A stretch of 64,000 nt of DNA. It comes from Nemertoderma westbladi. Its lineage: Eukaryota; Animalia; Xenacoelomorpha. The position numbers were made by a program, and so were the translations under genes. The notes below the pieces were generated by a model, which did no database searches, had not been told where the DNA came from, and worked only from the letters and a program-made list of their open reading frames with translations. The stretch's first letter is position 1; each line of letters opens with the position of its first letter. This document shows, one piece after another, positions 1,413 through 53,169 of the stretch. Location: NCBI GenBank assembly GCA_032718475.1, contig JAUCBJ010007358.1:34454-98453 (forward strand). Reading direction: 5' to 3'.

Positions 1413-1444
1413 GTAAAGGAAAAATAATATTTAATTAAAATAAA

Positions 1445-4400
1445 ATGTCAGATCATTACAGTACTAGTGCTGCATTGAGTTCCTCATGCGATTCGCAATC
1501 AGAAGATTTGTGCTGGGACGATGCTGCAATGGAACTCACCCCAGCAGAAAGGTCCCATTCAGATTCATTAGCAGCATCTCAAACAGAACGTCAAGCTAAT
1601 GAAATAGAGCAGCAGTGCTCTACAGTGTCTGTATCAGACACACAAAATCAACACCAAGACGACCCTAGGAATTTATTCGAAACCAGACAGGCTCCCGACA
1701 ATACCATGCTTCGAAGGTCTACCCGTCTACCAACCAGGAACTACAGCTCAGCTGTCAATCATGAGCAACAAGTTGCCATTCGAAGACGATTGGCAGCTTA
1801 TAAAGGGAGCCTTACTCAACTTTATAAATCTGAACAGCGCCTGAGTCAGAGTGATTTATATTTAACCCCATTAGCTGTATTTAGAACGCATGTGCATAGC
1901 ATGGAATTGAGCTGGAAAAATATAGAAAGAAGTTACAAAGCGTTGGTGACTCTATGTCTTGAAGATGGGGATGATCGATTAGCATTAGATTACGACCAAG
2001 ATTTACAGATTGCTGAGAACAATTTTTTCCAACACATGCGAATCGCTGAGGAACTAAATGACCAGGCCCAAATTTCACAGCAATCAAAAATTTTAAATGC
2101 AACCGTTTCAGTAACCAACAGGCCTCATATTCCACTTGTCACCACTGTGGATTCAATAAATGCAGTCCTTCCTGTAACTGCTGATTTGGTCACAGCTGCC
2201 CTGGAACAATCTGGAATAAATTTACCCTACGATGGGTTATCCCCAGCCACAGCTCAATCAGCTGGTACTGTAGTAATAGGAGAACGCCCCAAAGGCCAGA
2301 ACACCCCCGCTAAAGCCTTATCCTTTATTCATGCAGGTACAGGTGTGAACGCAAGTACAGATCAACCCGAAACTCAGTTAAATAGAGATGTACATGGGTG
2401 GCTTAATTCGAATCACAATAACAGCCAGTCACAAATAAGTATACCCCTTGAGCCCAAATCTAAGGAATTCCAAAGGATACAAGGTGAGTTCGATACTGCA
2501 GTGGCACAAGGAACCATTGAAAAATATTCTTATCGAACTCTAAAGGGTTTAAGACGAGAAAATGAATTACAAAATGAAATTGTCCCTAATGATTCCGTCT
2601 CCAATGTAGGAAGTAGGTATCATAAACGAGCTACTTCAAAGGCATCATCCAAGGTGTCACGAGTCACCCAATCTGAAACGGGAAGGTCTAACATTATGGC
2701 TGCCCGCAGAGAAGCTGAGCTTCTATCTTTAAAAGCAGAGATGGGGAAGGAGGCAGAAGAGATGAAACTTCTTGAGCAAAGCAGACTCGATGCTCACCGC
2801 GCTGAGCATGAGCATCAAGAGCGAGCATTAAAGGTGAAAGTAAAGTTACAGGAAGCTAATGACAATGCAAAATTAGCCAGGGCCAGATTAAAATTATTGG
2901 AACGGGATGCTGTATTAAGGGATTTCGCCCAAAATAAATCTGGGGAAAAAATTCAGGAAACAAAAAATTCGCGAATATCGATAGACCCTGATGTTCCATG
3001 TGCCAATGCAAGTATTTCTATTAGTGACAACATTAATGTGATACCGGTACCTGTTAGTAGTGTTAGTGTTAGTAGAGTGCAAATGGAGCGGAGTGCTGAA
3101 GTACCAAATGGACGTATGGGTGGAAGTGGAGTTGGTACACCTGTTCGTGCGACTGTTGAAGTGTGTAATGCAGCCAGTGGAAAAAGTAATGTACCGAAAT
3201 TTATGTTAGTGGATAATGGTGTAGCAGGTACTAGTTACATTAGCCCTAGTTATCAACCCAAAAATGATCCTAATGTTTTAGATAAAATTTCAAAATATCA
3301 GCCATCGAATGTTAATGAAAATGAATCAGTTCAGCTTGATAATGATGCTTCGGTGTCTATCGATGTTCATAATTGCCAAAATAAAGCCACTGCAGTAAAC
3401 CGAACTGCACCTCACTCTGGGAATGTCAGTACATTCCCCGATACTGTAGGGAATTCCAAAGATCACTCTATAAAATTGACTGAGCATGAGCTTGAACAGC
3501 CCAAAATGGATAACTTAGAGCCGAGATTACACATTCAAGCGAAAGGTGGGTCAGTGTCTTTGGGCCACACGCAGTCGACACCTGGCCTAAAAGTGAAATC
3601 GATTAGAGTGGCACGGTACCATACATCCTACTCAGATGCACCACAGCATAACTGTTTTGAATATGTTGATACTCCTGTAAAGCATTCAAACTTTATTGCA
3701 TCTACAGCAAGGTCATTGAACCCAATTAAACGACCAGTAACTGGAAGGGCAGCCGAACTTGACACAATTATTGAAGAGAAACAAGATGGCAATGACCAGG
3801 AATGTGCTGCATGCTTGCAAGGAGGGCCTCTTGCAGCAGTACACTACAACCCACGTGGCACCCCATATCATTTGCAAGCTGGCCCAAATCCAATAGCCAT
3901 TCCACACCCTGTACCAGTGTTTAAATCTCGTATCCAACCACCATTCCTACCTCGACCATACGGGAGCAATGGCATAAGAGCAACTCAGGAGCATTCCTTG
4001 GTAAAACCCCCTTTAGTGCCTGCTCCCATTTATGTACCTGCAAAGCAGACTACAGAATTATCAACTGTGCTTAATCCTGCAGCCATCGTCAGCCCAGTGC
4101 TGTCTGAGCCAGAACCTATATATATTAGTTGCAATTCACAAAGACAGGTCACAAACGTTTACTCTCCCGACCAACAACAACCACAGAATATGTTCGAACC
4201 CGATGATCACAAGCAGTCAGTTACCATGGCAACACAAACAGAATCTCATGGTAGGAAAGCGAGTGGAGAACAAGACAGAAATTACAACAAAGTAATTATT
4301 TCCAGTCCTAGAAAGATAACCAAAGTAAGAGAACATGAGGTGGATACAGATATGCCTGACGAACCTGAACATTCAAGTTCCAGAAGCAATGAAATATGTG

Positions 4401-7400
4401 ACAGTAGGGTAAGAGGTCGGCTAATTTCTAAGGCTGATACTATTTTAGCTCAGATTCTGGGTACACACAACGATTCGAACTCTAATTCAATCCTTGGCAC
4501 TGGCGCAGTTACAAATAATATAGGACAGTCAACAACTACAGAATCAGTTTGGAAAAATGTTGTTATGCGTTTAACATTGCCACCACAAATTCCAGAACCA
4601 TTCACTGGTAATCCTATTGAGTTTGTCAGCTTCATTCAAACCTTTTATGACAGAGTTCATGTCCATGACATTACAGACTCTGAAAGACTTAATTACCTGT
4701 TACAATATACCCGTGGAACACCACATACTGCTATTCGGAAGGTGAAAGGGCTGCAGTCTGGATATGCTAAAGCCTTGGAAATACTAAATGACCGTTATGG
4801 AAATTCATTACAAATAGTTGATAAGACAATATCCCAACTCGTTGATATCTCTCGCCTGGGTGATAATGATATCATTGGATTGAGAGAATTGGCTGATAAC
4901 CTCATGCAAGCAACACAGTTATTGGAACAAATGGGACGGTCTAATGAAATGAATAGTGTAGAGCATATGAAAAGAATAATAAGTGTCTGCCCCACTCATG
5001 TGCAGTATAAATGGCAAAAACGTGTTCATGAATTAAAAATGATCCATAAGAGACAACCAACTTTCAATGATGTAGTACAGCATATTGAATGGTCAGCAGG
5101 AGTGTCCTGTAACTCAGTATTTAAAGTCAATAGAAAGGCTATCGAAGATTCCACATCATCATCTCAAGGATATGGCAAGGGCCAGAACAAGGATCGGGGA
5201 GGCAATAATAAAACAACATTTCGTCCACCAAATGATGGATCACAACACAATTCCTTTGAGAATTTGCCAGGGAGGCTGGGATTTCCACAACATCCCCGTG
5301 CAACCATGTTACTCACTGATACCCATTACGGAAATACCAATCAACAACCCTATGGAGTAAATCAAGGCTACACCCATATGTCAGAAAATGGACCATATCC
5401 TTTGCATCATGTTGCACCACCACCTTTATCAAATCCAGACTATCGACATCAGCCACTGACGGCACGATTTCAATCTCCAATGCAACTACAACAAACCTAT
5501 CGTAAACCTGTATTAAACCCAAATAAACAGCAACAACCCAATAAGAATCATACAAATCCAACAGGTCCATCTATAGTCAGACCTTTCAAGGAGGCAGCAT
5601 ACAAGTGCATTTACTGTGGTGGAATTGGTCACCGAATATATTCATGTGGATCCTTCATGAAACTGAACCTAGGGGAAAGGCAGAAACATGTTGAAAGCAA
5701 CAATTGGTGCACTAATTGTCTAGGAATGCACCTCACAGAAAAATGTCAGTCGAAAGCAACATGCACAAAATGTGGTAGAAACCACCATACTCTACTCCAC
5801 CCACTGAGCAGTACACCAGCTCATCAATCAATGCATCCTAAGCCACGGGAAGGTGAAATTGGTCTTCTTGTAAATACAGAATATCTGGGAGCTATGGTAC
5901 CAGTTATTCCTGTACTGATTAAGTTTATGGATAGAATTCCTATCACTACCTTCGCCATATTGGATGGAGGATCTACCACCTGTTTCTTGGATAAAGGAGT
6001 AGTGGATTTGATGAACATTCCATCAGAAAAAAGGTTCATAAAAGTAAATACATTATTAGAAAATGGTGTTCTTGTCGAAATAGCTAGAACTCAGTGTACA
6101 ATAAGCGCTATGCTACCGGGATATCATGGGGAACTAGTTATGAACAATATGAATGTTCACGAAAGCATGCACTTTGACACACAATTACCTGACTCAAGGA
6201 TGATTGATTGGCCCCATTTTTATAACATTAGAGATAAATTAGACTACCCACCTGTCGATGTTCATAAGATTTCTGTGATTTTGGGAAGCAATGTACCAGC
6301 AGCACACATACGGACTGCACAGTGCTGGGGGAGTGATGTGAATAAACAACCCTTTGCGATAGAAGGCATATTTGGATGGTGTGTGACTGGTCCTAGACTT
6401 TGCTATATAGAGGAGTCAATGCAAGCCTGTGTGGGGGAAGTGATGGACAACCCTTCACTAATAGAAACATTGAACAAACCAATATACGATCCAATAAATT
6501 ATCCAATAAGTACCGATCCTGATAATGATCTTTACACACAGTTGGCACACTTTTGGAGCCAAGAGGGACAAGGCTTTACAACACCTGAAGGTAAGGTGTA
6601 CAAAACTGAAAGTGATAAGAGAGCTATAAATCTCCTAGAGAAGGCCGTACTTTTGCCAACTGGGCATTACCAGGTACCACTGTTATTCAAACATGAAGAC
6701 CGACAGTTAATAAATAACAAACCACTCGCTATTGCAAGATTGAAAAGTCTGACAAAAAGATTTGCCACAAACCCAGGAAGAGAGAACGAGTACAGAGAAA
6801 TTTTGGAGGATTATATAGCAAAAGGTTATGCTAGAAAGTTAGAGACTGAGGAGCTTGCAGATGATCATAATGCATATTATCTCCCTCATCACTATGTAGT
6901 AAATCCAAATAAAGATAAGATTCGAATTGTGTTCGATGCAGCTGCAACATACAAAGGAATGTCTTTGAACTCACAACTTCTGGAAGGACCAAATGCTACC
7001 AACGACCTATTAGGCGTACTGATGAGATTTAGGCAGGATAAAATTGCATTTTCCTGTGACATTGAATGTATGTTCTATCAAGTAAACACGACTGAAGAAG
7101 ATTCTAATAGCCTAAGATTCTTATGGTATGACAAGGATTCAAAGAAACGCGATCCTGATGTATACAAAATGGTTGTTCAGATATTTGGAGCACGTTCATC
7201 CCCATGTTCCGCCTGCTCAATGGTGCGAAAGACCGCGAAAGATAATATTCAAGACTTCTCCCCACAAGTAATAAAGACTATACTTAGTGGTTTCTATGTC
7301 GATGATGGGATGAAATCGACTGGATCAGTTAATGAAGCTTATGAGATCGCAACTGGTTTAATCGAATGCTTGAAGAAAGGTGGTTTTAATCTAACAAAAT

Positions 7401-10217
7401 TTAAAAGCAATTAGCGGGAACTTCTTGATAAGCTTCCACAAACGAAGAGAGCTGACCCAAACCTAGACCTTGACCTCGACAAACTCCCTACAACCCGGGC
7501 ATTAGGTGTTAAGTGGGACACGGAGGCAGATACCTTCAGTATTAAAGTCAGCCCAAGAAAGTTTCCAACTACAAAACGGAATTGTTTATCTAGTTTGGCA
7601 TCTATTTATGACAAATTAGGATTAGTTGCTCCTGTATTACTTATCGGCAAGAGATTTATGCGGGAGTTGTCCATATCAACCCCTAGCTGGGATACCCAAT
7701 TGGATGTTGAGTTTCTTACACGTTGGAACGAATGGAGTCGCCAGTTGGACTGTTTGAACGAACTCTCATTACCCCGTGCTTATTTTTCGAATCGCTTGAG
7801 TTCAGATCGCATAGAACTCCATATATTTTGTGATGCCTGTGAGACTGGATTAGGAGCTGTTGCATACCTGCGTCAACTTAGGAGAGCTTTGACAGAAGAA
7901 ACACCAAATACCATTATCAATGAAAGTTGCAAACAACCGCAATATGAAGTATCGACAGCATTTGTACTGGCAAAAACCAGAACTGCGCGAAAGAAGTTTG
8001 TTTCTATACCCCGAAAGGAGTTGCAATCTTGTGTTCTTGCCACTAGAATGTCAATCATAATACATGATGAAGTAGAACTATTTATAAATGCGACACATTT
8101 TTGGAGTGATTCCAGAACGTCGTTACAATACATAGCAAACCAGGATAAAAGGTACCCAACCTACATAATTAATAGAGTCGGTGAAATCGTCAAGAGTACT
8201 AATCCAAATCAATGGCATCATGTGAAGGGAATAGACAATGTAGCTGACATGGCCAGTCGTGGGGCGTTCCCACTAGACTTCATTGATAAGTTTGACCTAT
8301 GGTCAAAAGGACCCCAATTCTTACAAACTGATGAACTAGAATGGCCAAATGCTACTCAGCAATATACTGGTAAGGACTTGGATCCTACTGCTGAAATAAA
8401 ATCTAAACGCAAAGTTAATGACATGGGCCCACGAGACGATATAGAACCTATCCCTACTAGTTCGATAGACTATGCACAATTACATTCAATTGATGTGATG
8501 ATAACAATCGAAACACCTACAAATACCACAAATCTGTTACTAGACAAGCTGCTTTCATATTATGGAGATTGGATTCCTTTGATTAGAACTGTTGCTTGGT
8601 TGGTGCGTTTTAAAATGTGGTATATTCGCTCATTTCGCTTAAGACGTAGTCTTAAGCAAAGGTTAATACCAAAGAAGAAGATTAAGGTACTACCGAAATC
8701 ATTATGTTCTAATGCAAAGTCAGTCAATGATAAAGAAGGAACAGTGAAGCCTGTGAACAAACCCAAGAAAAAACAAACGATACAAGTTGTGAAACGCGAT
8801 GTGTTAAACTCTCTGCCAAAACCAGCACCAAAATCACAGTATCCTCTAACATTAGCCGAGGTGCAGGATGCACGTGTCCTTGTATTGAAATATTCACAAC
8901 AAAAGACATATCCAACTTAACTAGCAAGTTTGAAAGTGAACAAACCCATACACAGAAACAGCAACATATTTAAGTTATGTCCCTTTCTAGGAGAGGATGG
9001 CCTAATACGTATGAACAGCCGATTGGTGAAGACACCAACAAACCCTGATATGGCACAACCCATAATCCTATCCTCCAGTTGCCCAGTGACCAGGTTGATA
9101 GTGAGGTATACACATTCAGAGAACATGCACACAGGCAGAGATCATACTTTGGCGATAGTAAGACAAATTTATTGGATTGTGGGGGGACCTGCAAAGCTCG
9201 CAACCCAACGCCACTTAACCAAATAATGGCACCTCTACCCATCGATCGCATTACAGCATTTGAACCCTGCTTTACCTACACTGGTGTTGATTATTGGGGA
9301 TTTATGCTTGTACAACAGGGCAGAAGATCTGTGAAGATGTGGGGCGTAATTTTTACTTGCCTAGTCTCTCGAGCCGTTGCACTAGACTTAGCGGAAGATC
9401 TATCTGCAAGCACATTCATAAACTGCTTCCGTAGATTTGTCTGCCAATATGGAAATGTAAAACTACTCAGATCCGACAATGGAACAAATTTCGTCGGAGC
9501 CGAAACCGAATTATCTGACGCAATCGACCACTGGGACGTTTCACGAATTCAACACAACTTAGGCCCTCAAACGAAATTTGAGTTCCAAGTACCTTATGCA
9601 CCTCACACATCTGGAGTTTGGGAACGATTGAATCGGCCTGCTAAGGACGCTTTACGTGTTGCCCTAGGAAACAAGCTAGTCACCGAAGGCGTAGTGAGAA
9701 CAGCACTCGCTGAGGCAGCAAGAATTATGAACTCAAGACCGCTCTGTAAAGTAACAGATGATCCGACTGCCGACCAGGTACTGACACCAAACGACTTGTT
9801 ATTACGTAAGATAGTTTCACCTTGCCCTGGGGTATATGAGGAGGGTGATATATATTGTCGAAAGACCTGGAAGCAGGCACAGGCATTGACTGAAATATTC
9901 TGGGATAGATGGCTTCTAGAATACTTACCGCTGTTGCGAGAAAGACAAAAGTGGTTCACTAAGAAAAGAAACCTACAACCAGGCGACCTTGTACTTCAAA
10001 TGACAGACACAAAGAATAGACGAACGTGGATCACCGGGGTGATAGACTCTGTAAATCTAGGATCCGACGGTTGTGTTAGATCAGCACAAGTTAGGTGTGG
10101 CGGCACAATCTACTCTAGACATGTCACAAAGCTATGCTTGCTCGAGGCGACAATTACAGAGGAAGAAACTGACGCAAAACGAGCAAATGAGGACTCAGCA
10201 GATTCGTCTGTAAATTC
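1445..10217 (+). mobile_element. BEL/Pao LTR retrotransposon gag-pol, disabled, antisense within RNF19 intron 4
   Basis: Gag with three Zn knuckles (CIYCGGIGHRIYSC, CTNCLGMHLTEKC, CTKCGRNHHTLLH), protease ILDGGS, RT (RIVFDAA, YVDD), RNase H (HIFCDAC, FWSDS) and integrase (GVDY, SDNGTNF, WERL), in BEL order. In-frame stops at 7412-7414 and 8918-8920. Deletion/frameshift near 9187 in the integrase Zn finger. Confidence 0.95.
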
Positions 10218-11587
10218 GACTCCCCAATACTTACTAGACATTGTTAGAGACCCCGACCCAACCAGACTCCCCAATACTTACTAGACATTGTTAGAGACCC
10301 CGACCCAACCAGACTCCCCAATACTTACTAGACATTGTTAGAGACCCCGACCCACCCAGACTCCCCAATACTTACTAGACATTGTTAGAGACCCCGACCC
10401 AACCAGACTCCCCAATACTTACTAGACATTGTTAGAGACCCCGACCCAACCAGACTCCCCAATACTTACTAGACATTGTTAGAGACCCCGACCCACCCAG
10501 ACTCCCCAATACTTACTAGACATTGTTAGAGACCCCGACCCAACCAGACTCCCCAATACTTACTAGACATTGTTAGAGACCCCGACCCACCCAGACTCCC
10601 CAATACTTACTAGACATTGTTAGAGACCCCGACCCAACCAGACTCCCCAATACTTACTAGACATTGTTAGAGACCCCGACCCAACCAGACTCCCCAATAC
10701 TTACTAGACATTGTTAGAGACCCCGACCCAACCAGACTCCCCAATACTTACTAGACATTGTTAGAGACCTCGACCCAACCAGACTCCCCAATACTTACTA
10801 GACATTGTTAGAGACCCCGACCCAACCAGACTCCCCAATACTTACTAGACATTGTTAGAGACCCCGACCCACCCAGACTCCCCAATACTTACTAGACATT
10901 GTTAGAGACCCCGACCCAACCAGACTCCCCAATACTTACTAGACATTGTTAGAGACCCCGACCCACCCAGACTCCCCAATACTTACTAGACATTGTTAGA
11001 GACCCCGACCCAACCAGACTCCCCAATACTTACTAGACATTGTTAGAGACCCCGACCCAACCAGACTCCCCAATACTTACTAGACATTGTTAGAGACCCC
11101 GACCCAACCAGACTCCCCAATACTTACTAGACATTGTTAGAGACCCCGACCCAACCAGACTCCCCAATACTTACTAGACATTGTTAGAGACCCCGACCCA
11201 ACCAGACTCCCCAATACTTACTAGACATTGTTAGAGACCCCGACCCAACCAGACTCCCCAATACTTACTAGACATTGTTAGAGACCCCGACCCAACCAGA
11301 CTCCCCAATACTTACTAGACATTGTTAGAGACCCCGACCCAACCAGACTCCCCAATACTTACTAGACATTGTTAGAGACCTCGACCCAACCAGACTCCCC
11401 AATACTTACTAGACATTGTTAGAGACCCCGACCCACCCAGACTCCCCAATACTTACTAGACATTGTTAGAGACCCCGACCCAACCAGACTCCCCAATACT
11501 TACTAGACATTGTTAGAGACTCCGATCCAGCTAGACTCCCCAATACTTACTAGACATTGTTAGAGACTCCGATCCAGCTAGACTCCC
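10218..11587. repeat. 47-bp minisatellite (~29 copies) containing the RNF19 exon-4 5' splice site
   Basis: Unit CCCCAATACTTACTAGACATTGTTAGAGACCCCGACCCAACCAGACT; the minus strand reads ...ATGTCTA|GTAAGTATTGGGG. Confidence 0.97.
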
Positions 11588-11962
11588 TTGTATGCGGCCA
11601 CCAAAAGCGTCTCGCCCCCTTCTCGCTGCTTCGCACGTCATATTTGGGTGCCAGAATTGTTTGCAATGGTAACAGAAGCAGGTGTCGCACCCCGGACGTC
11701 CACACACAATGCGGGGACAACTGGCGCATCCGGTTGCGATAACAGCGTAACCGCAATCGGGTGTGGGGCACCATCGGCAGTCCGGGTCCGTAGCCAGAAG
11801 TCGACGGAGGGTGAACTCCTCGTACTTAAGGAATACCGAGGAGGAATCCACGCCGAGGATCGCCTTTATATCGTTGGGATGGAGACGTTCCGAGCATTCC
11901 GGACAGCTGATGTTGGTACGGCTCTCCGAGATCTCGATACGGATGTATTGCTGGATACAGTC
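11551..11962 (-). CDS. RNF19: RNF19 (Dorfin-like) RBR E3 ligase, coding exon 4 (end of RING1 plus IBR)
   Basis: [25 protein letters not shown]...[38 protein letters not shown]...[15 protein letters not shown] closely matches RNF19A/B as recalled. Boundaries are tttag|GAC and A|gtaagt. Confidence 0.93.
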
Positions 11963-14900
11963 CTAAAGGGGGGGGGGGGGGGGGGGGTGTAAATGGAAGG
12001 ATACAGTCCGAAATGGGGGATTCCCGATTGTAAATGGAAGGGTACAATCCTAAAGGTGGGAGTGTAAATTAAAGGATGCAGCCCTAAAGGGGGGGGGGGG
12101 GGAGTGTAAATGGAAGGATACAGTCCTAAAGGGGGGAGTGTAAATGGAAGGATACAGTCCTAAAGGGGGGGGGGGGGGGAGTGTGAATGGAAGGATACAG
12201 TCCTAAATAGGGGAGTGTAAATGGAAGGATACAGTCCTAAGGGGGGGGGGGGTAAATTGAAGGATACAGTCCTAAATAGGGGAGTGTAAATGGAAGGATA
12301 CAGTCCTAAAGGAGGGAGTGTAAATGGAAGGATACAGTCCTAAATAGGGGAGTGTAAATGGAAGGATACAGTCCTAAATAGGGGAGTGTAAATGGAAGGA
12401 TACAGTCCTAAAGGTGGGAGTGTAAATGGAAGGATACAGTCCTAAAGGGTGGGGGGGGGGGGAGTGTAAATGGAAGGATACAGTCCTAAATAGGGGAGTG
12501 TAAATGGAAGGATACATTCCTAAATGGGGGAGTGTAAATGGAAGGATACAGTCCTAAATAGGGGAGTGTAAATGGAAGGATACAGTCCTAAATAGGGGAG
12601 TGTAAATGGAAGGATACAGTCCTAAAGGAGGGAGTGTAAATGGAAGGATACAGTCCTAAATAGGGGAGTGTAAATGGAAGGATACAGTCCTAAATAGGGG
12701 AGTGTAAATGGAAGGATACAGTCCTAAAGGAGGGAGTGTAAATGGAAGGATACAGTCCTAAATAGGGGAGTGTAAATGGAAGGATACAGTCCTAAATAGG
12801 GGAGTGTAAATGGAAGGATACAGTCCTAAATAGGGGAGTGTAAATGGAAGGATACAGTCCTAAATAGGGGAGTGTAAATGGAAGGATACAGTCCTAAATA
12901 GGGGAGTGTAAATGGAAGGATACAGTCCTAAATAGGGGAGTGTAAATGGAAGGATACAGTCCTAAAGATGGGAGTGTAAACGAAAGGATGCAGCCTTAAA
13001 AGGGGGGAGGGGGGGGGGGGGGTGTAAATGGAAGGATACAGTCCTAAAGGTGGGAGTGTAAATGGAAGGATACAGTCCTAAAGGTGGGAGTGTAAATGGA
13101 AGGATACAGTCCTAAATAGGGGAGTGTAAATGGAAGGATACAGTCCTAAAGGAGGGAGTGTAAATGGAAGGATACAGTCCTAAATAGGGGAGTGTAAATG
13201 GAAGGATACAGTCCTAAAGATGGGAGTGTAAACGAAAGGATGCAGCCTTAAAAGGGGGGAGGGGGGGGGGGGGTGTAAATGGAAGGATACATTCCTAAAG
13301 GAGGGAGTGTAAATGGAAGGATACAATCCGAAATGGGTGATTGTAAATGGAAGGATACAGTCCTAAAGGTGGGAGTGTAAACGAAAGGATGCAGCCTTAA
13401 AGGGGGGGGGGGGGGGGGGGGGTGTAAATGGAAGGATACATTCCTAAAGGAGGGAGTGTAAATGGAAGGATACAGTCCTAAATAGGGGAGTGTAAATGGA
13501 AGGATACAGTCCTAAATAGGGGAGTGTAAATGGAAGGATACAGTCCTAAATAGGGGAGTGTAAATGGAAGGATACAGTCCTAAAGATGGGAGTGTAAACG
13601 AAAGGATGCAGCCTTAAAAGGGGGGAGGGGGGGGGGGGGGTGTAAATGGAAGGATACAGTCCTAAAGGAGGGAGTGTAAATGGAAGGATACAGTCCTAAA
13701 TAGGGGAGTGTAAATGGAAGGATACAGTCCTAAATAGGGGAGTGTAAATGGAAGGATACAGTCCTAAATAGGGGAGTGTAAATGGAAGGATACAGTCCTA
13801 AAGGGGGATAGTAAATGGAAGGATACCCGATACAGTCCTAAAGGGGGGAGTGTAAATGGAAGGATACAGTCCTAAATAGGGGAGTGTAAATGGAAGGATA
13901 CAGTCCTAAAGGAGGGAGTGTAAATGGAAGGATACAGTCCTAAATAGGGGAGTGTAAATGGAAGGATACAGTCCTAAATAGGGGAGTGTAAATGGAAGGA
14001 TACAGTCCTAAATAGGGGAGTGTAAATGGAAGGATACAGTGGAAGGATACAGTCCGAAATGGGGGGATTGTAAATGGAAGGATACAGTCCTAAAGGAGGG
14101 AGTGTAAATGGAAGGATACAGTCCTAAATAGGGGAGTGTAAATGGAAGGATACAGTCCTAAAGATGGGAGTGTAAACGAAAGGATGCAGCCTTAAAAGGG
14201 GGGAGGGGGGGGGGGTGTAAATGGAAGGATACATTCCTAAAGGAGGGAGTGTAAATGGAAGGATACAATCCGAAATGGGTGATTGTAAATGGAAGGATAC
14301 AGTCCTAAAGGTGGGAGTGTAAACGAAAGGATGCAGCCTTAAAGGGGGGGGGGGGGGGGGGGGTGTAAATGGAAGGATACATTCCTAAAGGAGGGAGTGT
14401 AAATGTAGGGGGTGTAAATGGAAGGATACAGTCCTAAAGATGGGAGTGTAAACGAAAGGATGCAGCCTTAAAAGGGGGGAGGGGGGGGGGGGTGTAAATG
14501 GAAGGATACAGTCCTAAAGGAGGGAGTGTAAATGGAAGGATACAGTCCTAAATAGGGGAGTGTAAATGGAAGGATACAGTCCTAAATAGGGGAGTGTAAA
14601 TGGAAGGATACAGTCCTAAATAGGGGAGTGTAAATGGAAGGATACAGTCCTAAAGGGGGATAGTAAATGGAAGGATACAGTCCTAAAGGGGGGAGTGTAA
14701 ATGGAAGGATACAGTCCTAAATAGGGGAGTGTAAATGGAAGGATACAGTCCTAAAGGGGGGGGGAGTGTAAATGGAAGGATACAGTCCTAAATAGGGGAG
14801 TGTAAATGGAAGGATACATTCCTAAAGGAGGGAGGGTAAATGGAAGGATACAGTCCTAAAGATGGGAGTGTAAATGGAAGGATACAGTCCTAAATAGGGG

Positions 14901-17900
14901 AGTGTAAATGGAAGGATACATTCCTAAAGGAGGGAGTGTAAATGGAAGGATACAGTCCTAAATAGGGGAGTGTAAATGGAAGGATACAGTCCTAAAGGGG
15001 GGGGGAGTGTAAATGGAAGGATACAGTCCTAAATAGGGGAGTGTAAATGGAAGGATACATTCCTAAAGGAGGGAGGGTAAATGGAAGGATACAGTCCTAA
15101 AGATGGAGTGTAAATGGAAGGATACAGTCCTAAATAGGGGAGTGTAAATGGAAGGATACATTCCTAAAGGAGGGAGTGTAAATGGAAGGATACAGTCCTA
15201 AATAGGGGAGTGTAAATGGAAGGATACATTCCTAAAGGAGGGAGTGTAAATGGAAGGATACAGTCCTAATAGGGGAGTGTAAATGGAAGGATATAGTCCT
15301 AAAGGGGGGGGGGAGTGTAAATGGAAGGATACAGTCCTAAATAGGGGAGTGTAAATGGAAGGATACATTCCTAAAGGAGGGAGGGTAAATGGAAGGATAC
15401 AGTCCTAAAGATGGGAGTGTAAATGGAAGGATACAGTCCTAAATAGGGGAGTGTAAATGGAAGGATACATTCCTAAAGGGAGGGAGGGTAGAATGGAAGG
15501 ATACAGTCCTAAAGATGGGAGTGTAAATGGAAGGATACAGTCCTAAAGGGGGGGGGGAGTGTAAATGGAAGGATACAGTCCTAAATAGGGGAGTGTAAAT
15601 GGAAGGATACATTCCTAAAGGAGGGAGGGTAAATGGAAGGATACAGTCCTAAAGATGGGAGTGTAAATGGAAGGATACAGTCCTAATGGGGGGAGTGTAA
15701 ATGGAAGGATACAGTCCTGAAGGGGGGAGTAAATGGAAGGATACAGTCCTAAAGGATGGAGTGTAAATGGAAGGATACAGTCCTAAAGGGGGGGAGTGTA
15801 AATGGAAGGATACAGTCCTAAAGGGGGGGGGGAGTGTAAATGGAAGGATACAGTCCTAAATAGGGGAGTGTAAATGGAAGGATACAGTCCTAAATAGGGG
15901 AGTGTAAATGGAAGGATACATTCCTAAAGGAGGGAGGGTAAATGGAAGGATACAGTCCTAAAGATGGGAGTGTAAATGGAAGGATACAGTGCTAAAGGGG
16001 GGAGTGTAAATGGAAGGATACAGTCCTAAATAGGGGAGTGTAAATGGAAGGATACAGTCCTAAATAGGGGAGTGTAAATGGAAGGATACAGTCCCAAATA
16101 GGGGAGTGTAAATGGAAGGATACAGTCCTAAATAGGGGAGTGTAAATGGAAGGATACAGTCCTAAATAGGGGAGTGTAAATGGAAGGATACAGTCCTAAA
16201 TAGGGGAGTGTAAATGGAAGGATACAGTCCTAAAGGTGGGAGTGTAAATGGAAGGATACAGTCCTAAATAGGGGAGTGTAAATGGAAGGATACAGTCCTA
16301 AATAGGGGAGTGTAAATGGAAGGATACAGTCCTAAATAGGGGAGTGTAAATGGAAGGATACAGTCCTAAATAGGGGAGTGTAAATGGAAGGATACAGTCC
16401 TAAATAGGGGAGTGTAAATGGAAGGATACAGTCCTAAATAGGGGAGTGTAAATGGAAGGATACAGTCCTAAATAGGGGAGTGTAAATGGAAGGATACAGT
16501 CCGAAATGGGGGATTGTAAATGGAAGGATACAGTCCTAAAGATGGGAGTGTAAATGGAAGGATACAGTCCTAAAGATGGGAGTGTAAATGGAAGGATACA
16601 GTCCTAAATAGGGGAGTGTAAATGGAAGGATACAGTCCTATATAGGGGAGTGTAAATGGAAGGATACAGTCCTAAATAGGGGAGTGTAAATGGAAGGGTA
16701 CAGTCCTAAATAGGGGAGTGTAATTGGAAGGATACAGTCCTAAATAGGGGAGTGTAAATGGAAGGATACAGTCCTAAAGATGGGAGTGTAAATGGAAGGA
16801 TACAGTCCTAAATAGGGGAGTGTAAATGGAAGGATACAGTCCTAAATGGGGGAGTGTAAATGGAAGGATACAGTCCTAAATAGGGGAGTGTAAATGGAAG
16901 GATACAGTCCTAAATAGGGGAGTGTAAATGGAAGGATACAGTCCTAAAGGGGGGGAGTGTAAATGGAAGGATTCAGTCCTAAATAGGGGAGTGTAAATGG
17001 AAGGATACAGTCCTAAATAGGGGAGTGTAAATGGAAGGATACAGTCCTAAAGGGGGGGAGTAAATTGAAGGATACAGTCCTAAAGATGGGAGTGTAAATG
17101 GAAGGATACAGTCCTAAATAGGGGAGTGTAAATGGAAGGATACAGTCCTAAATAGGGGAGTGTAAATGGAAGGATACAGTCCTAAAGGTGGGAGTGTAAA
17201 TGGAAGGATACAGTCCTAAAGGGTGGGGGGGGGGGGAGTGTAAATGGAAGGATACAGTCCTAAATAGGGGAGTGTAAATGGAAGGATACAGTCCTAAATA
17301 GGGGAGTGTAAATGGAAGGATACAGTCCTAAATAGGGGAGTGTAAATGGAAGGATACAGTCCTAAATAGGGGAGTGTAAATGGAAGGATACAGTCCTAAA
17401 TAGGGGAGTGTAAATGGAAGGATACAGTCCTAAAGGTGGGAGTGTAAATGGAAGGATACAGTCCTAAAGGGGGGGGGGGGGGGGAATGTAAATGGAAGGA
17501 TACAGTCCTAAATAGGGGAGTGTAAATGGAAGGATACATTCCTAAAGAGGGGAGTGTAAATGGAAGGATACATTCCTAAAGAGGGGAGTGTAAATGGAAG
17601 GATACAGTCCTAAAGAGGGGTGTAAATGGAAGGATACACTCCTAAAGGGGAGGGGGGAGGGAGAGTAAATAGAAGGATACACCCCTAAGCGGGGGGGGAG
17701 TAAATGGAAGGATACAGTCCTAAATAGGGAAGTGTAAATGGAAGGATACAGTCCTAAATAGGGGAGTGTAAATGGAATGATACACTCCTAAAAGGGGGGG
17801 GGGGTGTAAATGGAAGGATACAGTCCTAAAGGGGGGAGTGTAAATGGAAGGATACAGTCCTAAAGGGGGGGGGGAGTGTAAATGGAAGGATACAGTCTTA

Positions 17901-17930
17901 AAGAGGTGGGGGGGTGTAAATGGAAGGGAC
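11953..17930. repeat. 34-bp minisatellite (~6 kb, roughly 170 copies) containing the RNF19 exon-4 3' splice site
   Basis: Unit GGATACAGTCCTAAATAGGGGAGTGTAAATGGAA with variable G runs; the minus strand reads ttccatttacactcccctatttag|GACTGTATCC. Confidence 0.97.
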
Positions 17931-17954
17931 AGTTAGTGCGGACTATAAACTAAC

Positions 17955-18133
17955 CATGCACGACCTGTGTTCGCAGGTAACAACATTAGCGAAGTTGCTC
18001 TTGGGTTGATTGGTTAGACATAAAGGGCATTCATCGGTAGCTGATGGAGAGAATGTCTCGGTACGGGAAGGTTTCCGGCTCTTAGAGCTACTGATTGATG
18101 GCGGGTGGGTGGAATATGTAGAAGACAGTTCGC
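17955..18133 (-). CDS. RNF19: RNF19 coding exon 3 (start of RING1)
   Basis: ...TDECPLCLTNQPKSNFANVVTCEHRSCM joins in phase 0 to DCIQQY. Boundaries are ttaacag| and |gttagt; 179 nt. Confidence 0.9.
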
Positions 18134-18162: not shown

Positions 18163-21100
18163 AGTCAGGTCAGGTCCCCAGATCCTGCTACCACTATGGC
18201 AGTAATGTGGTATTACCTGTAGCTGTCAGCCCAGTAGGGCAGGCCCGATAAGCATAGCCTATTCATTATTTAGTTGATCAAGAGTGGGTTGGTTTTAGCC
18301 CCGTCAACTAAATAAGTCATTGAGGGCTATAGCGCCTCGGGCACCATTGAAGGCAAAGGCCTGATACGCATCTGCAATAGAGATGATAAACGCCCCGCCC
18401 TGTCTATACTGGATGCTCCTCTACCAGTGTTAGGTAACCTAACCCTGGAGGCACACTTGGTTCAGGGTGTAACAAATGGACCCCTACAGTCGGCAGCAGG
18501 GCTGTAGGCCATGATAGGCGGAAGGTAATCAACCAACGGCTAGACATGCTGACAAGGTCGGCGGAAGGTAATCAACCAACGGCGACCTACTGCGAAGACG
18601 CTTGTAGGAGTTGCGACCATAAGCGGTTTACTCTCGCAACTGAAAGATATGAGTATGAGAACCCTCCAGGAGAAATACCGGCTCGGTCGTCGCCCGGGTC
18701 AACAAGGACCGCGTCCCTCAGTGGTACACCAGGCTGGGGTCGATAAGTTGGCTACTAGAACAAATGACAGAGAAGAAAGAAGAACCAACCTGTTGAAATG
18801 TAAAAAGACACTAAAGATTGCTACAATGAGCGCACGCATGCTGAAAGCACATAGCAAACAGGGTGACATGGTCGCTCTGGCAATGGAGTATAACATCGAC
18901 ATCATCTGCATCCAAGAACATCGGATTTGTCATGAAGACACTGCCATGAAGTACAATGACATTGGAAATGGATGGACGTTAGTAACAAGCTCAGCAGTAA
19001 CAAACTCGGCCAATGCATCAATTGGTGGAGTAGGAATTCTGCTAAGCCCATTTGCACTTAAGACCCTAAACAACATCGAATCTATAAATTCCAGGGTTAT
19101 GATCGCAACATTTGATGGGAATCCCAAGGCAACAGTTATATGTTGCTACAGTCCAACCAATTCCTCAGAGCCAGAACAAGCAGTCAAGTTTTATGAAGAA
19201 CTGACTGGACTTATTAAGGACATCCCGAAACACAATGTTAAAGTCATTGCTGGTGACCTGAATGCGCAAATTGGCCCAGAAGAAATCAAGGGTTACACAC
19301 TATAACACCAGTTCTAACAGAAATGGGTACTTACTTTTAGACCTAATGGAAGAATGTGAATTGATACCAACAAACAACACATTCGAAAAGAGTAAGGGGA
19401 AGCTATGGACCTTTCAATACCCTAATGGAACCAAAGCACATCTGGATTACATGCTTATAAACAAAAAGTGGAGAAACAGCATGATCAACTGCGAGGCATA
19501 CAGCTCGTTCAACCTAATTGGTTCGGACCACAGAATTGTGACTGCAGAGATCAGACTCAGTTTGAGAGCCAGCAAACCCAGGACAAGCAAGCAAATCAAA
19601 TATGACTGGGAGAAACTCAGAACTGACAATGCTGTAAAGGATGCTTATACAGTAGAAGTTCAAAACCGCTTTGAAGCACTTCAGTCAATGGATGAAGACC
19701 AATCCACCAATTCAATATACCAGAATATAATAACAGCCCACAAGGAATCAGCTAAGAGGCATATCCCCCAGAAACCCAAACGAAAACAGTATGTGCCATG
19801 GCAAAACTTGTTACTTGTAAGAGAGACGATCTTAAGGAGGGGGGGGGGTAGCGCATTTTCTCACCAAAAAGACGAATTTTTGAAACATATCCTATCTGAT
19901 GCAGAATTTCATGCTGAATCCAAATATGGAAACCGTTTTCCGATATCTTGCTTAGTTTTCGAGATATCTGGGATAGAAGATACTGGCTCCGATATATCGC
20001 GATATCGGTAAAGGCGATGAAGTTTGGGGTTTGCATTCAATTTATGCAAATTTCTCTGCTCAGTGTGCCAATTGGATGTCATTGGAAATGGATGGACGTT
20101 AGTAACAAGCTCAGCAGTAAGAAATTCGGCCAATGCATCAATTGGTGGAGTAGGAATTCTGCTAAGCCCATTTGCACTTAAGACCCTAAACAACACCGAA
20201 TTTATAAATTCCAGGGTTATGATCGCAACATTTTATGGGAATCCCAAGGCAACAGTTATATGTTGCTACAGTCCAACCAATGCCTCAGAACCAGAACAAG
20301 CAGTCAAGTTTTATGAAGATCTGACTGGACTTATAAAGGACATCCCGAAACACAATGTAATATGTTATAATATAATATAATATTATATAATATAATAAAG
20401 CGAGTGAATTAGATGAAATCTCAGCGGAGGTATGGAAAACCGGAGTGCTAAACAGACCATTATTGAATGTTTGCAACCGGATGTTAAAAGGGGAAAAGCC
20501 ACCACCAATTTGGACTAAAGGTCAACTAAAGCCTCTCCCCAAGAAAGGAGACCTCGGCATACCAACAAACTATCGTGGGATCTGTCTGCTTGTGGAAGCT
20601 GCCAAAATATACAATAAAATGATTCTATATAGGATTAGGCCTAACATAGAGAAACTACTCCGTAAGAGCCAAAACGGATTTCGACCAAGCAGATCAACAA
20701 TAGCTCAGATACTTGCATTACGGAGACTGATTGAAGGAATTAAGTCAAAAAATCTCCCCGCAGTCATGACTCCATCCATAGAGGTAAAATGCTTGAAATC
20801 CTAAGAGCTTATGGAATACCAGAAGTAATTGTTGCTGGCATTGGATTGTTATATTGTGACACAGAAGCGCAGGTACTCTCACCAGATGGTGAAACTGAGT
20901 TTTTCTCAATCCTGGCTGGCGTACTGCAAGGTGACACATTAGCACCATTACTATTTGTAATTGTGCTGGATTACGCAATGCGGACGGCCACAAAGGGTGA
21001 AGATCTGGGATTCACACTTCAAGAACGCAGAAGTAGTAGATATCCGGCAACTACAGTCACAGACACCGACTTTGCGGATGACATCGCCCTGCTCTCTAAT

Positions 21101-21828
21101 ACGCTAGCAGATGCACAGCTTCTACTAAATAAAGTGGAGAGGGCTGCTAAGGAGGTTGGATTGCATATAAATGCTACAAAGACCGAATTCATGACCTTTA
21201 ATGTTGATGGGAACTTGACAACCATTGATAATAATCAACTAAGGAAGGTCGATGACTTCCAGTACCTTGGATCAAGGATAGAGAGTAGTAAAAAGGACAT
21301 AGAAGTTAGGAAAACAAAGGCTTGGGTAGCTCTATCAAAAATGGATACCATCTGGAAATCAGATCTCTCCAGGCACCTGAAGACCAAGTTCTTTCGAGCC
21401 ACAGTGGAAAGTGTATTTTTATACGGGGGTGAGACCTGGACACTGACTAAATCACTTGAACAACGAATTGATGGTTGCTACACAAGACTACTAAGGGCAG
21501 CCCTAAACATCAGCTGGAGACAACACATGACAAACGCCGAGCTTTATGGTACAATACCACCTGTATCCACCACCCTCTGTGAACGCAGATTGAGATTCAA
21601 TGGGCACTGCTGGAGAAGTTAAGACGAGGTCATACCGATCTACTTTTCTGGCAACCAACTCATGGAAAGCGTAGTCGTGGACGACCGGCCATAACATATA
21701 TAGATCAACTTGAAAGGGATACTGAACTTGGGAGAAACGAAATTGGAAATTGCGACAACTATGGAGAATCGGGAAGCCTGGAAGGATCTCATTTCCACTG
21801 ACCGAGTTCGCTCGACCTAGTAGTAGTA
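18163..21828 (+). mobile_element. RTE-like non-LTR retrotransposon, near full length, frameshifted and rearranged
   Basis: APE motifs (IQEHR, YSPT, GDLNA, LDY, SDH) and RT motifs (QNGFR, GVLQGDTLAPLLF, FADDIAL, YLGS), C-terminal GHCWR, (TAG)n tail. 9-bp TSD GGATTTAAT at 18154-18162 and 21829-21837. Confidence 0.92.
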
Positions 21829-30502: not shown

Positions 30503-33500
30503 ATGTACGTTATTTTAACCCTATTAAACCCGGGGAGGGGTCAATATGACCCCCCCCGTGGTTTTTTTATTATAATTCTGAAACAAACGCAGTTGGGAAT
30601 CTGAAATTTTATGACTTTTCCTAAAAATCTATTGTCTTCATGGTAGTGAAAACCGTTTTCAAAAATATTGGGTACTTTTCGAGTTATAGCACCATTTTTT
30701 AACCCTACTTTTGGCACTTTTTTTGAGACGTTTTTTGAAAATTACATTTCATTAAATATGAATTGTAACATCTCGGTTTTTGATTTACACCGGTTTTTTG
30801 GTGTTAGAAATTGGATGGAATTCATATAAATTGATTTAGAAATTTCAAACTTGTTTTTTTCGATGGGTGCCAAATTTTGGTGCCAGCACCAAATTTTGAA
30901 ATAAGTCAATTTTGTAAATTGATTATTTGAAACTTGTTTTTTACGCAATTGGGGTTTTTTGAGGTTCTGGTTTCGATGAAATATATACGAGTTGAACCAA
31001 GCGTATCAAACTTGTATTTTTCGGTGCTGTGTGCTAATTTTGGTGCTAGCACGAAATTTTGAAAATCCATTCAATATATAAAATTGCTTGTGACAATTTA
31101 TTTCTTGCGTTTTAGAGGTTTATGGCTGTTCTGAATTCAATGGAAAATATAATTATCGAACTAGACATCTCAAACTTGTATTTTTCGGATGTGGGTACAA
31201 AATGTGGTGCTAGCACCAAATTTTGAAAACCATCAAATATATCAATTGATTGTGTCACCTTGTTTCTTGCGTTATACGGGTTTGTGATGGTTCTGAATTC
31301 AATGGAATCAGTAAAAATTTCATAAGAGTTCTCAAACTTGTATTTTTCGCCGGTGGGTGAAAATTGTTGTGCCAGCACCAAATTTTGGAAAATATGCAAA
31401 TTGATAAGTAGATAGTATCACCTTGTTTCTTGCGTTATACGGGTTTATGAGGGTCCTGAATCCGATGGAATCAATAAAAACAGCACTGGACATCGCAAAC
31501 TTGTACTTTTTGGTGATGGGTACGAAATTTGGTGCTAGCACCAAAATTTGCTAAATTACGCCGAAAAATACAAGTAACAATGATCTGGCATATTAGAAAT
31601 GTATTCCATTAGAATCAGCGCCCTCGAAAACCTGAAAATGTGAATTTATAGCATCGTATAAGTGAATTAAAAATTTTGTGTTCTAACTGAAAAGTGCTGG
31701 TTACTTGTTTTTTTCATTTTTTTCCTACGCAGAGAGGACTAAACAGCCATTTATAGTAATCATATCATTTTTAAATATTTTCCAATGTATTTTGCACCCC
31801 AAAAAACCTGTATTGAAAAATAATTAGCCGAAAATGTAACTTTCAAATTTTGTGAAAATTGTGCACTACTTGTAATTTTGGTGCTGCAATATAACCACCC
31901 CAGTACATTTTTCCGAAAATTTTTTTTTTCGGTCGGATCCAGACAAGTGATACCTACGTACAAACAAAAAATCAGACGTTTTCGTAAATATTTGTAGATT
32001 TTAGAGGGGGGGGGTCAATATGACCCCCTCCCGGTATTTGTACAACATTTTATAGCCCGGTACTAATAGGGTTAATCGCCTTGTTAGCATTAACTGTATT
32101 ATTTTATTTCCTATTATTGAGACCTTTCGGTTCCAGCCATAGAGATTTGCCTTTAGCTCATCGCGGGTTGCCTATAATTGGGAGTTGGTTCCAGATTGTG
32201 AAACCGCCCCCATTAAACGGACGGTTTCTGCTGGAAAACACGAAAAATTTGACATTTCCGGTGGCGAAATATTACATTATGGGACGCACTCTCATATTTT
32301 TGATGGGAATTGATGTTATTAAAAACATTTTTATCACTCAAAGTGCAAACTATAATATGCGTGTGTCATCTAATCACATCCTCTCGATAATAAACAGAAA
32401 CAAAGGATTACTTGAGTCGACTGGAAAGTATTGGATTTCCCACAGAAAGATAAGTTTTGCTATGATGCGTTATTTCGGTTTTGGAAAACGGAATTTTCAA
32501 GAAGCAATTTCACAAGAAGCAACGATTCTGTGTCTTCGCATCGAGATCGATTGTAATTCTTTAGCATTTGAACCTCAGCGTTTTATCAACGATGCCATTG
32601 CTAATGTAATTTCGGCTGCTGTTTTCGGTTCGAGGTTCAGCTACGCAGACAAGTATTTTGAAAGGTTAAATTATTTGATTAAGAATATGGTGGATGAGGG
32701 TAATTTTAATCTGCCTGGAATATTTTATAAAATTTTACAGCGAATTCCAGGGACCTATATCAGCAAATACATCGAGTTACACAAAGAACTTTTAAGATTG
32801 ATTGAGGAGAAAGTAGAAGAACACAAGATTGAGGCGGAAGGTGATAAAGAACCTATGGATTTTATTGACTATCTTATTCTAGAACAGAAAAAGGAATTGA
32901 AACAGAATCATACGAACGACATATTTGATAATTTCAGTATATGTATTATTATAGTTGATATGTTTGCTGCAGGTACAGAAACCACATCTAAAACATTGCG
33001 ATGGTTAATTCTCGCCTTAACAAAACATCCCAAAATACAACGGGAATTTCAACATATTCTGGATGATCAAGTAGGTAGGAACCGGTACCCTACATTAGAA
33101 GATGTGGAACAAATACCCTTTATAACTGCTTGTATTCTAGAAACATTACGAGTATCTGGTGTTGTCCCTGTAACTTTACGTTCTGCCCAAAAAGATGGCA
33201 ATATTAGTGGATTTACTCTTCCGAAATCGGCAAATAATTTAATCCACATTTGGGCATTGAATCACAACCCAGAATGGTGGGTTAACCCAGAGGAATTCAA
33301 CCCAAATAACTTCCTAAGTAAAGACCAACTTACTGTTCGAATTCCAGAGCATTTCATACCATTTGGACTCGGTGCAAGATCCTGTCTAGGGGAGAGATTG
33401 GCTCTCATGGAGTTAAAGATATTTTCAGCCTACTTGTTTCACCAATTTAACTTCGAACCAGTCGATGGCGATAGTCTACCATCACTGAATGATAGCAGAG

Positions 33501-33559
33501 GTAGTTTTTTAACACTCGAACCGATGGAGTACAAGATAATCGCTGTGAAGCGATATTAA
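30503..33559 (+). pseudogene. Intronless cytochrome P450 (CYP2 clan), interrupted at codon 5/6 by the TTAA element; body intact at 32076-33559
   Basis: TM anchor, WxxxR, AGTETT, ETLR, PEEFNPNNF and FGLGARSCLG. Removing the insert restores MYVILIALLALTVLFYFLLL in frame. Confidence 0.88.
30519..32071. mobile_element. Non-autonomous piggyBac-like DNA transposon (1553 bp)
   Basis: TTAA at 30515-30518 and 32072-32075. TIR CCCTATTA/TAATAGGG, subterminal palindrome GGGGTCAATATGACCCC at both ends, internal degenerate repeats at about 30840-31550, no transposase. Confidence 0.88.
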
Positions 33560-37453: not shown

Positions 37454-38174
37454 TTAGGGGTTAGATTGATGGAAGGGTTTAGCTGGTTGGGTGACTGGAT
37501 TGTTGGGCGGATAGTAGCCGGTACCATACTGCACCGCTAGAGGGCTGCCTCGGCTGCCGCCGGGCTGGTTGTAAGCGGGTTGGCGGATGTTGGAGTACCC
37601 GGCTGGCTGGTCGTATGTGTTCGGGTAGGTAACGGAGGGGTTGTAGGGCTGGGGGGCATTATAGGGGGCGCTGGACGCGGGTTGGGGGGCGTACTGGGGG
37701 GCGTTATAGGGGGCGCCGGACGCGGGTTGGGGGGCGTTGTAGGGGGCTCCGTGGGAGTTGTAGGGGGCACCTGGTGCGGGTTGGGGGGCCCCAGGCTGCT
37801 GGGCACCTGGCGCGGGTTGGGGGGCGTTGTAGGGGGCACCTGGTCCGGGTTGGGGGGCGTTGTAGGGGGCACCTGGTGCGGGTTGGGGGCCCCCAGGCTG
37901 CTGGGCACCTGGCGTAGGATTGGGGGCGTTGTAAGATGGCCCAGGTTGTAACGGGGGCCCCGTCTGTGGGAACTGTTGCCCCGGTAACACACCATGCTGG
38001 TACTGGCCGCGTGGTGGTCCCGGATATTGTTGCCCTGACGACGACCCAGACACGTCGCGCGTCATCAACTCGTGGTAAGTCGTTAACACTTTCCCCATCT
38101 CGTCGGCTATTTCTTGCATTGTCGTTAATTTGTTATCAAGTTTATCGATTTCGCTGTCAATTTCAGGTCCCATT
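37454..38174 (-). CDS. STAM: STAM exon 4 (GAT/coiled-coil end plus Pro/Gln/Tyr tail, stop)
   Basis: ttacag|A MGPEIDSEIDKLD continues LEDRCQK and resembles STAM 'CHQMGPLID'. Confidence 0.88.
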
Positions 38175-38194
38175 CTGTAAGAAAAATTAAAGAA

Positions 38195-44354: not shown

Positions 44355-44373
44355 ATAATCGACACAAACTCAC

Positions 44374-44668
44374 TTCTGACACCTATCCTCTAACTCTCTC
44401 AACTCCCGAGGTTCGTCCGACTCCGGTAACTTGGGGTCGCATCGCTCCAACAGATCCAACGTCCGTTTAATAAGGTCCGCGGCCTCTGTCTCGTTAAACG
44501 GACCAATAGGAGGCAGTATAGAGTCACCAGCATCGGAGGACTCAACGTCCTGCAACTCAACTTCCTCCTTAAATCGAAGTTTCCGTTTCTCTACAGCCGG
44601 AGTTAGAATCTCCACGTATGACTTGGGGAACAGACCGACTTGCATTGGTTGACGGGACTCCACATAAC
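44374..44668 (-). CDS. STAM: STAM exon 3 (SH3 end, GAT start)
   Basis: ttag|G YVESRQPMQVGLFPKSYV...LLERCDP...ELEDRCQ AA|gtgagt; phases 1 and 2 fit both neighbours. Confidence 0.9.
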
Positions 44669-47815: not shown

Positions 47816-47847
47816 CATTCTCATCTTTTTTCAAAAACAGTACCAGT

Positions 47848-47953
47848 ACCAGTATATACTCGATATATAACCAGTATATACTCGATATATAACCAGTATA
47901 TACTCGATATATAACCAGTATATACTCGATATATAACCAGTATATACTCGATT
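47848..47953. repeat. 22-bp tandem repeat (~4.5 copies)
   Basis: ACCAGTATATACTCGATATATA. Confidence 0.9.
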
Positions 47954-48304
47954 AATCACTATCGAATCTATAACGTTGGATACTGTAACATCTTTACAAC
48001 TTTAGGTCTATCCCGTATGGAAATTGATTTCAACTGCGAATTTCCCTCAGGTACTCTATGGAAGCGAAGGAGGACGGTGTATTTAACACATTCTAACGGA
48101 ACCCATTCTAATTTCCAGGTACAGTCACTCAATGGGATCCCGGGTGAGATATAATAGAATTCATTTATGTTTTATATACGGGAACCGGTAACCAACAAGG
48201 ATGTCTCTCTTCTTGCAAGTCAAACAAATACATTAAAACAAGTAATCAATAATTGCCGTTGTGTTTAATACATACCGGTAGGAAATAATATGTATATCAC
48301 TTAC

Positions 48305-48981: not shown

Positions 48982-49165
48982 CTAAAAATATTATTATATA
49001 AAATATTGGAGTGAATGTAAACTAAGTTATGTAGAAGCTACCTATGCTACCATCCTATACATATTAATGTTATTTGTTTATGACCAACACAGTTCACGAT
49101 CCTTCATCGGGCAGACCCAGGCTTTGTTTGACATGAAGGTTATTAACCTTGACAATGGGTCATAT

Positions 49166-53010: not shown

Positions 53011-53169
53011 GTATATAGGACAGTAGGATGGAGGCCACCAAACAGGAATGAGCCCCTACAGACTGTTGAAGGAGTTCGAACTTCGAATGGGTGTACAGTC
53101 TGACATGACTGCATGACAAAATAAGACGTCAATCAGCCCCTCACTGCCTCTCACAAAGCATAAACTCAC

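Follow-up and report, generated by a model that had tools for sequence, protein, structure and literature searches.

How is the end of an exon found when the sequence that marks it is repeated 29 times in a row? This question is raised by a contig of the xenacoelomorph Nemertoderma westbladi (GenBank assembly GCA_032718475.1, contig JAUCBJ010007358.1), of which we analyzed one stretch of 64,000 nucleotides, hereafter the window; all positions given are those of the window. A preliminary description of the sequence had proposed that the 5' splice site (donor) of one exon is amplified about 29-fold, that the copies are decoys possibly reshaped to favor the proximal site, and that arrays built from the exon's own two splice sites flank it on either side.

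The RNF19 exon

The exon in question (Table 1) carries an IBR domain (Pfam PF01485, E 8.9e-14). Its homologues are animal RNF19 proteins, with identities of 62-73% among the 120 listed of 994 matches; none of these 120, whose taxa are spread across animals, exceeds 73%. Judged by this homology, the exon is a real one and belongs to an RNF19A/B-like RBR E3 ubiquitin ligase. A tblastn search of the window, in which 16 of the 120 listed homologues served as queries, located part of the upstream exon and did not find the next, downstream RNF19 exon within the window.

Table 1. Features at and around the RNF19 exon (positions in the window)
Feature	Position	Strand	Evidence
Bel/Pao LTR retrotransposon copy, intronic, antisense to RNF19	1439..10210	+	Pfam DUF1759, Peptidase_A17, DUF5641
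Donor minisatellite, 47-bp unit, 29.1 copies	10218..11587	-	Tandem Repeats Finder, unit table, X2/X3 contigs
The 27 G-enriched distal units; decoy GTAAGT intact in every one	10222..11490	-	
First duplicate, identical to exon end; in-frame TAG 11533-11531 and decoy donor 2 (11503)	11491..11537	-	
Authentic 5' splice site, first intron base 11550	11545..11550	-	X1 contig
Internal coding exon, 412 nt, phase 0 to phase 1; end of RING1, IBR, linker	11551..11962	-	
Acceptor minisatellite, 34-bp, nearly fills upstream intron	11966..17927	-	Tandem Repeats Finder; X1
Upstream RNF19 exon, 3' part (start of RING1), donor at 17954	17955..18062	-	tblastn; joined to 11962 in X1

Structure of the donor array

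The donor repeat is a head-to-tail tandem array with a unit of minisatellite size, for which Tandem Repeats Finder reports a period of 47, 98% matches and 0% indels. As the preliminary description had it, each unit, read on the minus strand, comprises the last 34 nt of the exon and the start of the intron, here its first 13 nt. The roughly 29-fold amplification was also borne out: GTAAGT occurs 29 times on the minus strand at an exact spacing of 47 nt, with first intron bases running from 11550 down to 10234. The background of this motif outside the arrays is 0.25 per kb per strand, and its 29 occurrences are to be read as copies of one site, not as independent events. The splice site is repeated intact, CTA/GTAAGTATTGGGG (the slash marks the exon-intron boundary) being kept in 29 of 29 units. 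The further claim that every copy carries a perfect donor holds for the intronic part, which is GTAAGT throughout, and fails for the exonic part, which reads CTA and not MAG; the site has 9 of 11 matches to the donor consensus.

When tabulated, the units fall into four types only. Listed from proximal to distal, there are 2 exon-type units, 19 with four changes, 6 with an extra G and 2 with a G>A change. The exon-type units are the real exon end and the first duplicate, whose identity to the exon had been noted correctly. The 19 units of the common distal type are marked by four transitions (on the sense strand A>G, C>T, A>G and A>G); the 6 have an additional G where C stood, which creates GGGTGGG, and the 2 have an added G>A that brings back one AG. 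These three distal variants are interspersed along the array. The string of changes that the preliminary description ascribed to the distal copies is found exactly in 19 of the 27, and its three A>G changes in all 27. Its statement that two AGs are removed and G-runs built also agrees with the counts: the exon type has five AGs and one run of three or more Gs per unit, and the common distal type has three AGs and three such runs, the two G>A units regaining one AG. A canonical four-G-run motif is present on the sense strand in 6 of the 29 units, all of the extra-G type, and GGG(AGTC) is common to both borders of the unit.

Donor usage

The exon is represented in three sequencing runs (X1, X2 and X3) from three studies, in each case by assembled contigs labelled 'DNA?'; X1-X3 are flagged as possible sources of the window and may not be independent. 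The X1 contig, with a length of 2572 nt and a depth of 1313, covers 11549-11963 with 0 mismatches and 0 gaps. One of its loose ends is the upstream exon (found at 17956), with an intron of 5992 nt skipped, and the other, read by hand, continues in frame as EIKSCPRC, which resembles the RING2 start of the homologues. No retroelement sequence was seen in X1. Because exons are joined in it, we read X1 as a spliced transcript, and hence as RNA, despite its label. Its match overruns the exon by two bases because the following exon starts with GT, and we place the junction at 11551/11550 because only that cut leaves GT at the start of the intron.

The dominant transcript, for which this single contig of a single run stands, leaves the exon at the first of the 29 donors (11550) and enters it at the last of 130 copies of the acceptor core (AG at 11964-11963). 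The preliminary description had taken the proximal donor as the true one while allowing that the true site might lie elsewhere, and the X1 cut falls exactly at the proximal donor. Because contigs drop rare forms, a few per cent of transcripts may still use distal donors. X1 is without cover over 11495-11548, which we do not count as evidence.

Reading through the first donor leads to an in-frame TAG at 11533-11531, at the place previously given. Donors 2-5 were checked and all include this stop; on the sequence, any distal donor would take in the same premature stop, as had been claimed. We also considered the copies as recursive splice (ratchet) sites and rejected this, as the AG there overlaps the G of the donor (CTA/GT) and the sequence ahead of each of the three AGs still present has a pyrimidine share of 0.40-0.55, vs 1.0 at the true acceptor.

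Origin of the array

We conclude that the array is very probably a splice-junction ('mirage') minisatellite, the outcome of junction duplication and turnover that the gene tolerates, and not a regulatory device. This reading builds on the observed anatomy, on one contig spliced at donor 11550 and at the last acceptor, on the stop, and on the presence of the array in two DNA runs. Slippage at a short, G-rich microhomology is the likely source of a first duplication of a 47-bp piece across the donor boundary, with amplification following it. One early copy would have taken four transitions, three of them A>G, and become the founder of the 27 distal units, which would have spread by ordinary minisatellite turnover, possibly aided by instability of the G-quadruplex type.

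Tolerance of the array may be explained by the way in which the exon is recognized. The spliceosome would define the exon from its strong acceptor and take the first good donor, as in human F7; the scanning model behind this proposal derives from mammalian cells. Because they have no polypyrimidine tract, the 47-nt spacers presumably cannot form exons of their own. With the first donor in use in the one spliced contig at hand, the other 28 are probably disregarded, fully or almost so. Rare leaks would end at the stop before RING2 and would likely be cleared by nonsense-mediated decay. On this view the gene would put up with the array, since splicing is settled at the donor next to the exon and any leakage is cut short by the stop, and the array would be a by-product in a minisatellite-rich genome.

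Comparison with known boundary minisatellites

The donor array is likely a further case of a repeat type known from human and lancelet genes, which we compare here. In intron 7 of human F7, the first unit of a 37-bp VNTR lies across the exon/intron boundary, and of its donors the one furthest upstream is the sole one to be used; donor choice stays unchanged when the copy number is varied from 1 to 12 or the G triplets are mutated (Borensztajn et al. 2006, PMC1557585). F7 and RNF19 are alike in having the first unit across the boundary, identical donors after the real one, and G triplets or runs in the units. They differ in the makeup of the array, with 4 nt of exon and 33 of intron in 5-9 copies in F7, and 34 and 13 nt in 29 copies in RNF19. 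In RNF19, unlike F7 as described there, the distal units have diverged into a G-richer type and the acceptor has an array as well, and whereas polymorphism is established in F7, the RNF19 array is known from the window and from contig depths.

The same paper lists further human donor-spanning minisatellites of similar copy number, namely those of 6-16 (25 pseudo-sites), CBS intron 13 (15-20 units), LMNB2 (100-bp unit) and PDGF intron 4 (81-bp unit) (PMC1557585). According to it, splicing of 6-16 and CBS also draws on two of the pseudo-sites, whereas none is used in the single RNF19 contig.

In lancelets, 'mirage' minisatellites are described in the globins BflGb6 and BflGb9 (Ebner et al. 2010, PMC3087553), in PGBD5 (PMC3902484) and in Adh3 (Canestro et al. 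2002, as cited in PMC3087553 and PMC3902484). They are duplications of 5' or 3' boundaries, with units of 10-160 bp, and they are reported to leave normal splicing undisturbed (PMC3087553; PMC3902484). Like RNF19, they have a homogenised interior, a distinct border unit and an invertebrate host. In RNF19 both boundaries of one exon are involved, with 29 and ~130-170 copies, whereas the lancelet globins, as described there, have the two kinds in different genes; lancelet Adh3 may already be a two-sided case.

The units of RNF19 resemble those of human CEB1, a G-quadruplex-prone minisatellite, in being G-rich and in tandem, and quadruplex-capable G-rich units are known to destabilise minisatellites (PMC2673046). 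We infer a link to RNF19 from the 6 of 29 units with four G-runs; by analogy, quadruplex-type instability could be a DNA-level reason for the G-rich variant to spread.

The G-rich distal variant

The preliminary description also held that the copies had possibly been reshaped to favor the proximal donor. We simulated four substitutions on the exon-type unit, 200,000 times per model, in a post hoc test that treats the changes as those of one founder unit and not as 27 events. The 9-nt donor was left untouched in 41% of simulations and a net two AGs were lost in 10-11%; the keeping of the donor and the loss of AGs need no explanation. At least three Gs were gained in about 4.5% and two G3 runs in 0.3-0.5%. 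The gain of G-runs is real and unusual and, by this post hoc test, not plainly random.

One explanation for this gain is selection: the new G-runs would bind hnRNP F/H-type proteins, push the spliceosome to the proximal donor and be kept as compensation for the decoys. The rarity of two new G3 runs among random sets of four changes and the 10-11% probability of the AG loss speak for it, as does the fact that the proximal donor is the one used, and an enhancer between competing donors is stated to be able to favor the upstream one (PMC1557585). We nevertheless consider it unlikely, since the changes amount to a single founder event, and the gained runs lie next to the decoys, starting at +70 relative to the true donor and at +23 relative to donor 2, while the ancestral GGGG at +10 follows all donors alike. 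With these distances we rejected an hnRNP F/H-dependent G-run enhancer placed to favor the used donor. The decoy donors themselves are not weakened, four changes having a 41% chance of missing the donor, and two units regain an AG. Masking of the distal donors by RNA folding was not supported either, as the predicted folds leave them no less accessible than the true donor (predicted unpaired 0.46-0.70 vs 0.49). G triplets are without effect in the F7 experiments (PMC1557585), and a donor-proximal GGGG can also silence (PMC1079783).

Other arrays in the window are moreover equally G-skewed. Eleven arrays make up 31.5% of the window. The donor array has 64 G runs per kb, on one strand only, and the acceptor array and the arrays at 22122, 24152, 33777 and 58506-59408 have 31-70 G3/C3 runs per kb, likewise one-sided (4 to 5 such arrays besides the donor array, depending on the count, at a background of 7-8 runs per kb). 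With one-sided G-richness so common in the window, and with copy number and G triplets of no effect in F7, adaptive reshaping is not supported. That the minisatellite evolved its own splicing insulation, its copies swept to a G-run-rich and partly quadruplex-capable variant that helps the spliceosome to ignore decoys, is correspondingly doubtful.

Possible effects on RNF19 output

The array could, without any evolved function, lower RNF19 output in a manner dependent on copy number, through use of distal donors or through extra binding of U1. The 28 spare donors are intact and have the same U1 match as the true donor, every one of them would give the stop at 11533-11531, and 6-16 and CBS do use the next two sites (PMC1557585). 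The dominant spliced form is nonetheless correct, and F7 splicing is unchanged from 1 to 12 copies (PMC1557585).

Contig depth, a rough measure, also enters here: the ratio of distal unit to exon contig is 3.3 in X2 and 22.2 in X3, but the ratio of retroelement to exon shifts likewise (9.0 vs 41.8), which may stem from the libraries rather than from the length of the alleles. Because this control moves in the same way, we claim no length polymorphism from X2 and X3, and we regard a dosage effect of the array as improbable.

Reality of the array and its left edge

The preliminary description had named an assembly artefact as the finding that would overturn it. The distal unit is present as a circular 77-nt contig in X2 and X3, two DNA runs from two studies, and no such contig was found in X4; the depth ratio in X3 (22.2) fits the 21.9 that the window predicts. 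Because the distal unit occurs in two DNA runs, in one of them at the depth predicted from the window, we take the donor array to be real, and in bulk it is not an artefact.

In X2 and X3 the exon contigs begin at 11538 and are unbroken where the exon-identical duplicate should branch the assembly graph, so that unit 2 is in these samples either absent or a loop removed by the assembler. That the assembler made or inflated the array as such, or else the array's length together with the junction to the retrotransposon, is highly improbable given the 77-nt contigs, the depth in X3 and the interspersed variants, and its scope narrows to unit 2, with these unbroken contigs, and to the left join, which no listed contig bridges (10210-10218), X1-X3 being possibly not independent of the window.

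The Bel/Pao copy on the left ends 7 nt from the array. It is broken by a stop at 7412-7414 and by a frame break between 8917 and 9049, and self-BLAST found neither an LTR pair nor a 3' LTR for it within the window. The family is multi-copy by contig depth. High-depth Bel/Pao contigs in three of the four runs (X2, X3 and X4) leave the window at 10210, and because they diverge there we conclude that this copy has lost its 3' end. The join between retroelement and array is most likely a deletion scar that also took the original intron behind the unit; because that intron was removed, the microhomology at the unit borders can be bracketed at 3 to 7 nt. We rejected the array as an internal repeat (LTR or 3' UTR) of Bel/Pao, as the element contigs exit before the array and the unit matches the RNF19 exon end.

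The acceptor side

The upstream RNF19 intron (11963-17954, minus strand) is 5992 nt long and is nearly all acceptor-spanning array. The 9-nt acceptor core is present in 130 copies including the real one, and the array has ~130-170 copies. Both splice sites of the exon are thus amplified, with one array on each side of it, as had been reported; to call this remarkable was an overstatement, as the arrangement belongs to a described class. Amplification of both ends of one exon is mildly unusual, and in the part of the open literature that we searched we found no report of two-sided exon arrays.

As a separate observation, the first ~57 nt of the upstream intron resemble a complete short intron. 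They contain a branch-like motif, CACTAAC, about 6 kb from the acceptor used in X1, and the first acceptor-like copy in the intron has AAG instead of TAG.

It is plain that arrays often occur at exon borders in this DNA. Of the nine splice sites that we mapped in the window, two have an array running across them, both of these belonging to the RNF19 exon, and three more lie within 20-27 nt of an array edge; these nine, too few for a rate, are three RNF19 sites with contig support and six sites of a STAM-like gene placed by homology to one protein.

The RNF19 locus is a natural test of exon definition outside mammals. It is one more case in which position is seen to govern the choice of donor in animals, the site next to the exon beating many identical copies, here on both sides of an exon and with transcript support. 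It also serves as an example of an intron enlarged through amplification of its own splice sites. The locus would gain greater weight only if correct splicing proved to depend on the G changes, or RNF19 output on allele length.

Other features of the window

The STAM-like gene lies at 37460-53345 on the minus strand, with four exons by homology. In its last intron, an array with a 44-bp unit (42145-44352) stops 20 nt short of the donor and one with a 36-bp unit (38195-39781) 20 nt short of the acceptor, so that neither site is spanned. We did not accept a resemblance of the 44-bp array to a STAM acceptor: its score of 29 was exceeded in 2 of 2393 background windows and equaled in 2 places, for an AT-rich match chosen post hoc. 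The coding exons contain tandem repeats of their own, in the proline-rich C-terminal part (37649-37889) and, with a 30-bp unit, in the linker between VHS and SH3 (48475-48568). A 410-nt segment at 61853-62262, upstream of the first coding exon, is a 99%-identical partial copy of 48632-49041, comprising the acceptor and 5' part of STAM exon 2; it is a segmental copy or an assembly duplicate.

A fragmented LINE-type element with an RVT_1 match (18553-21800, plus strand) is located upstream of the RNF19 RING1 exon and has an internal duplication of 283 nt (18956-19238 and 20076-20358). An intronless cytochrome P450 frame of 511 codons (32024-33556, plus strand; Pfam E 1.1e-92) is followed by a G-rich 42-bp array that is interrupted by 25-bp arrays. 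Finally, an array of 16 41-bp units on the minus strand (57512-58167) has acceptor-like and donor-like words in its unit and might be a junction array; it adjoins a possible non-coding exon (58167-58330, minus strand), in which stops are visible by eye in all three frames.
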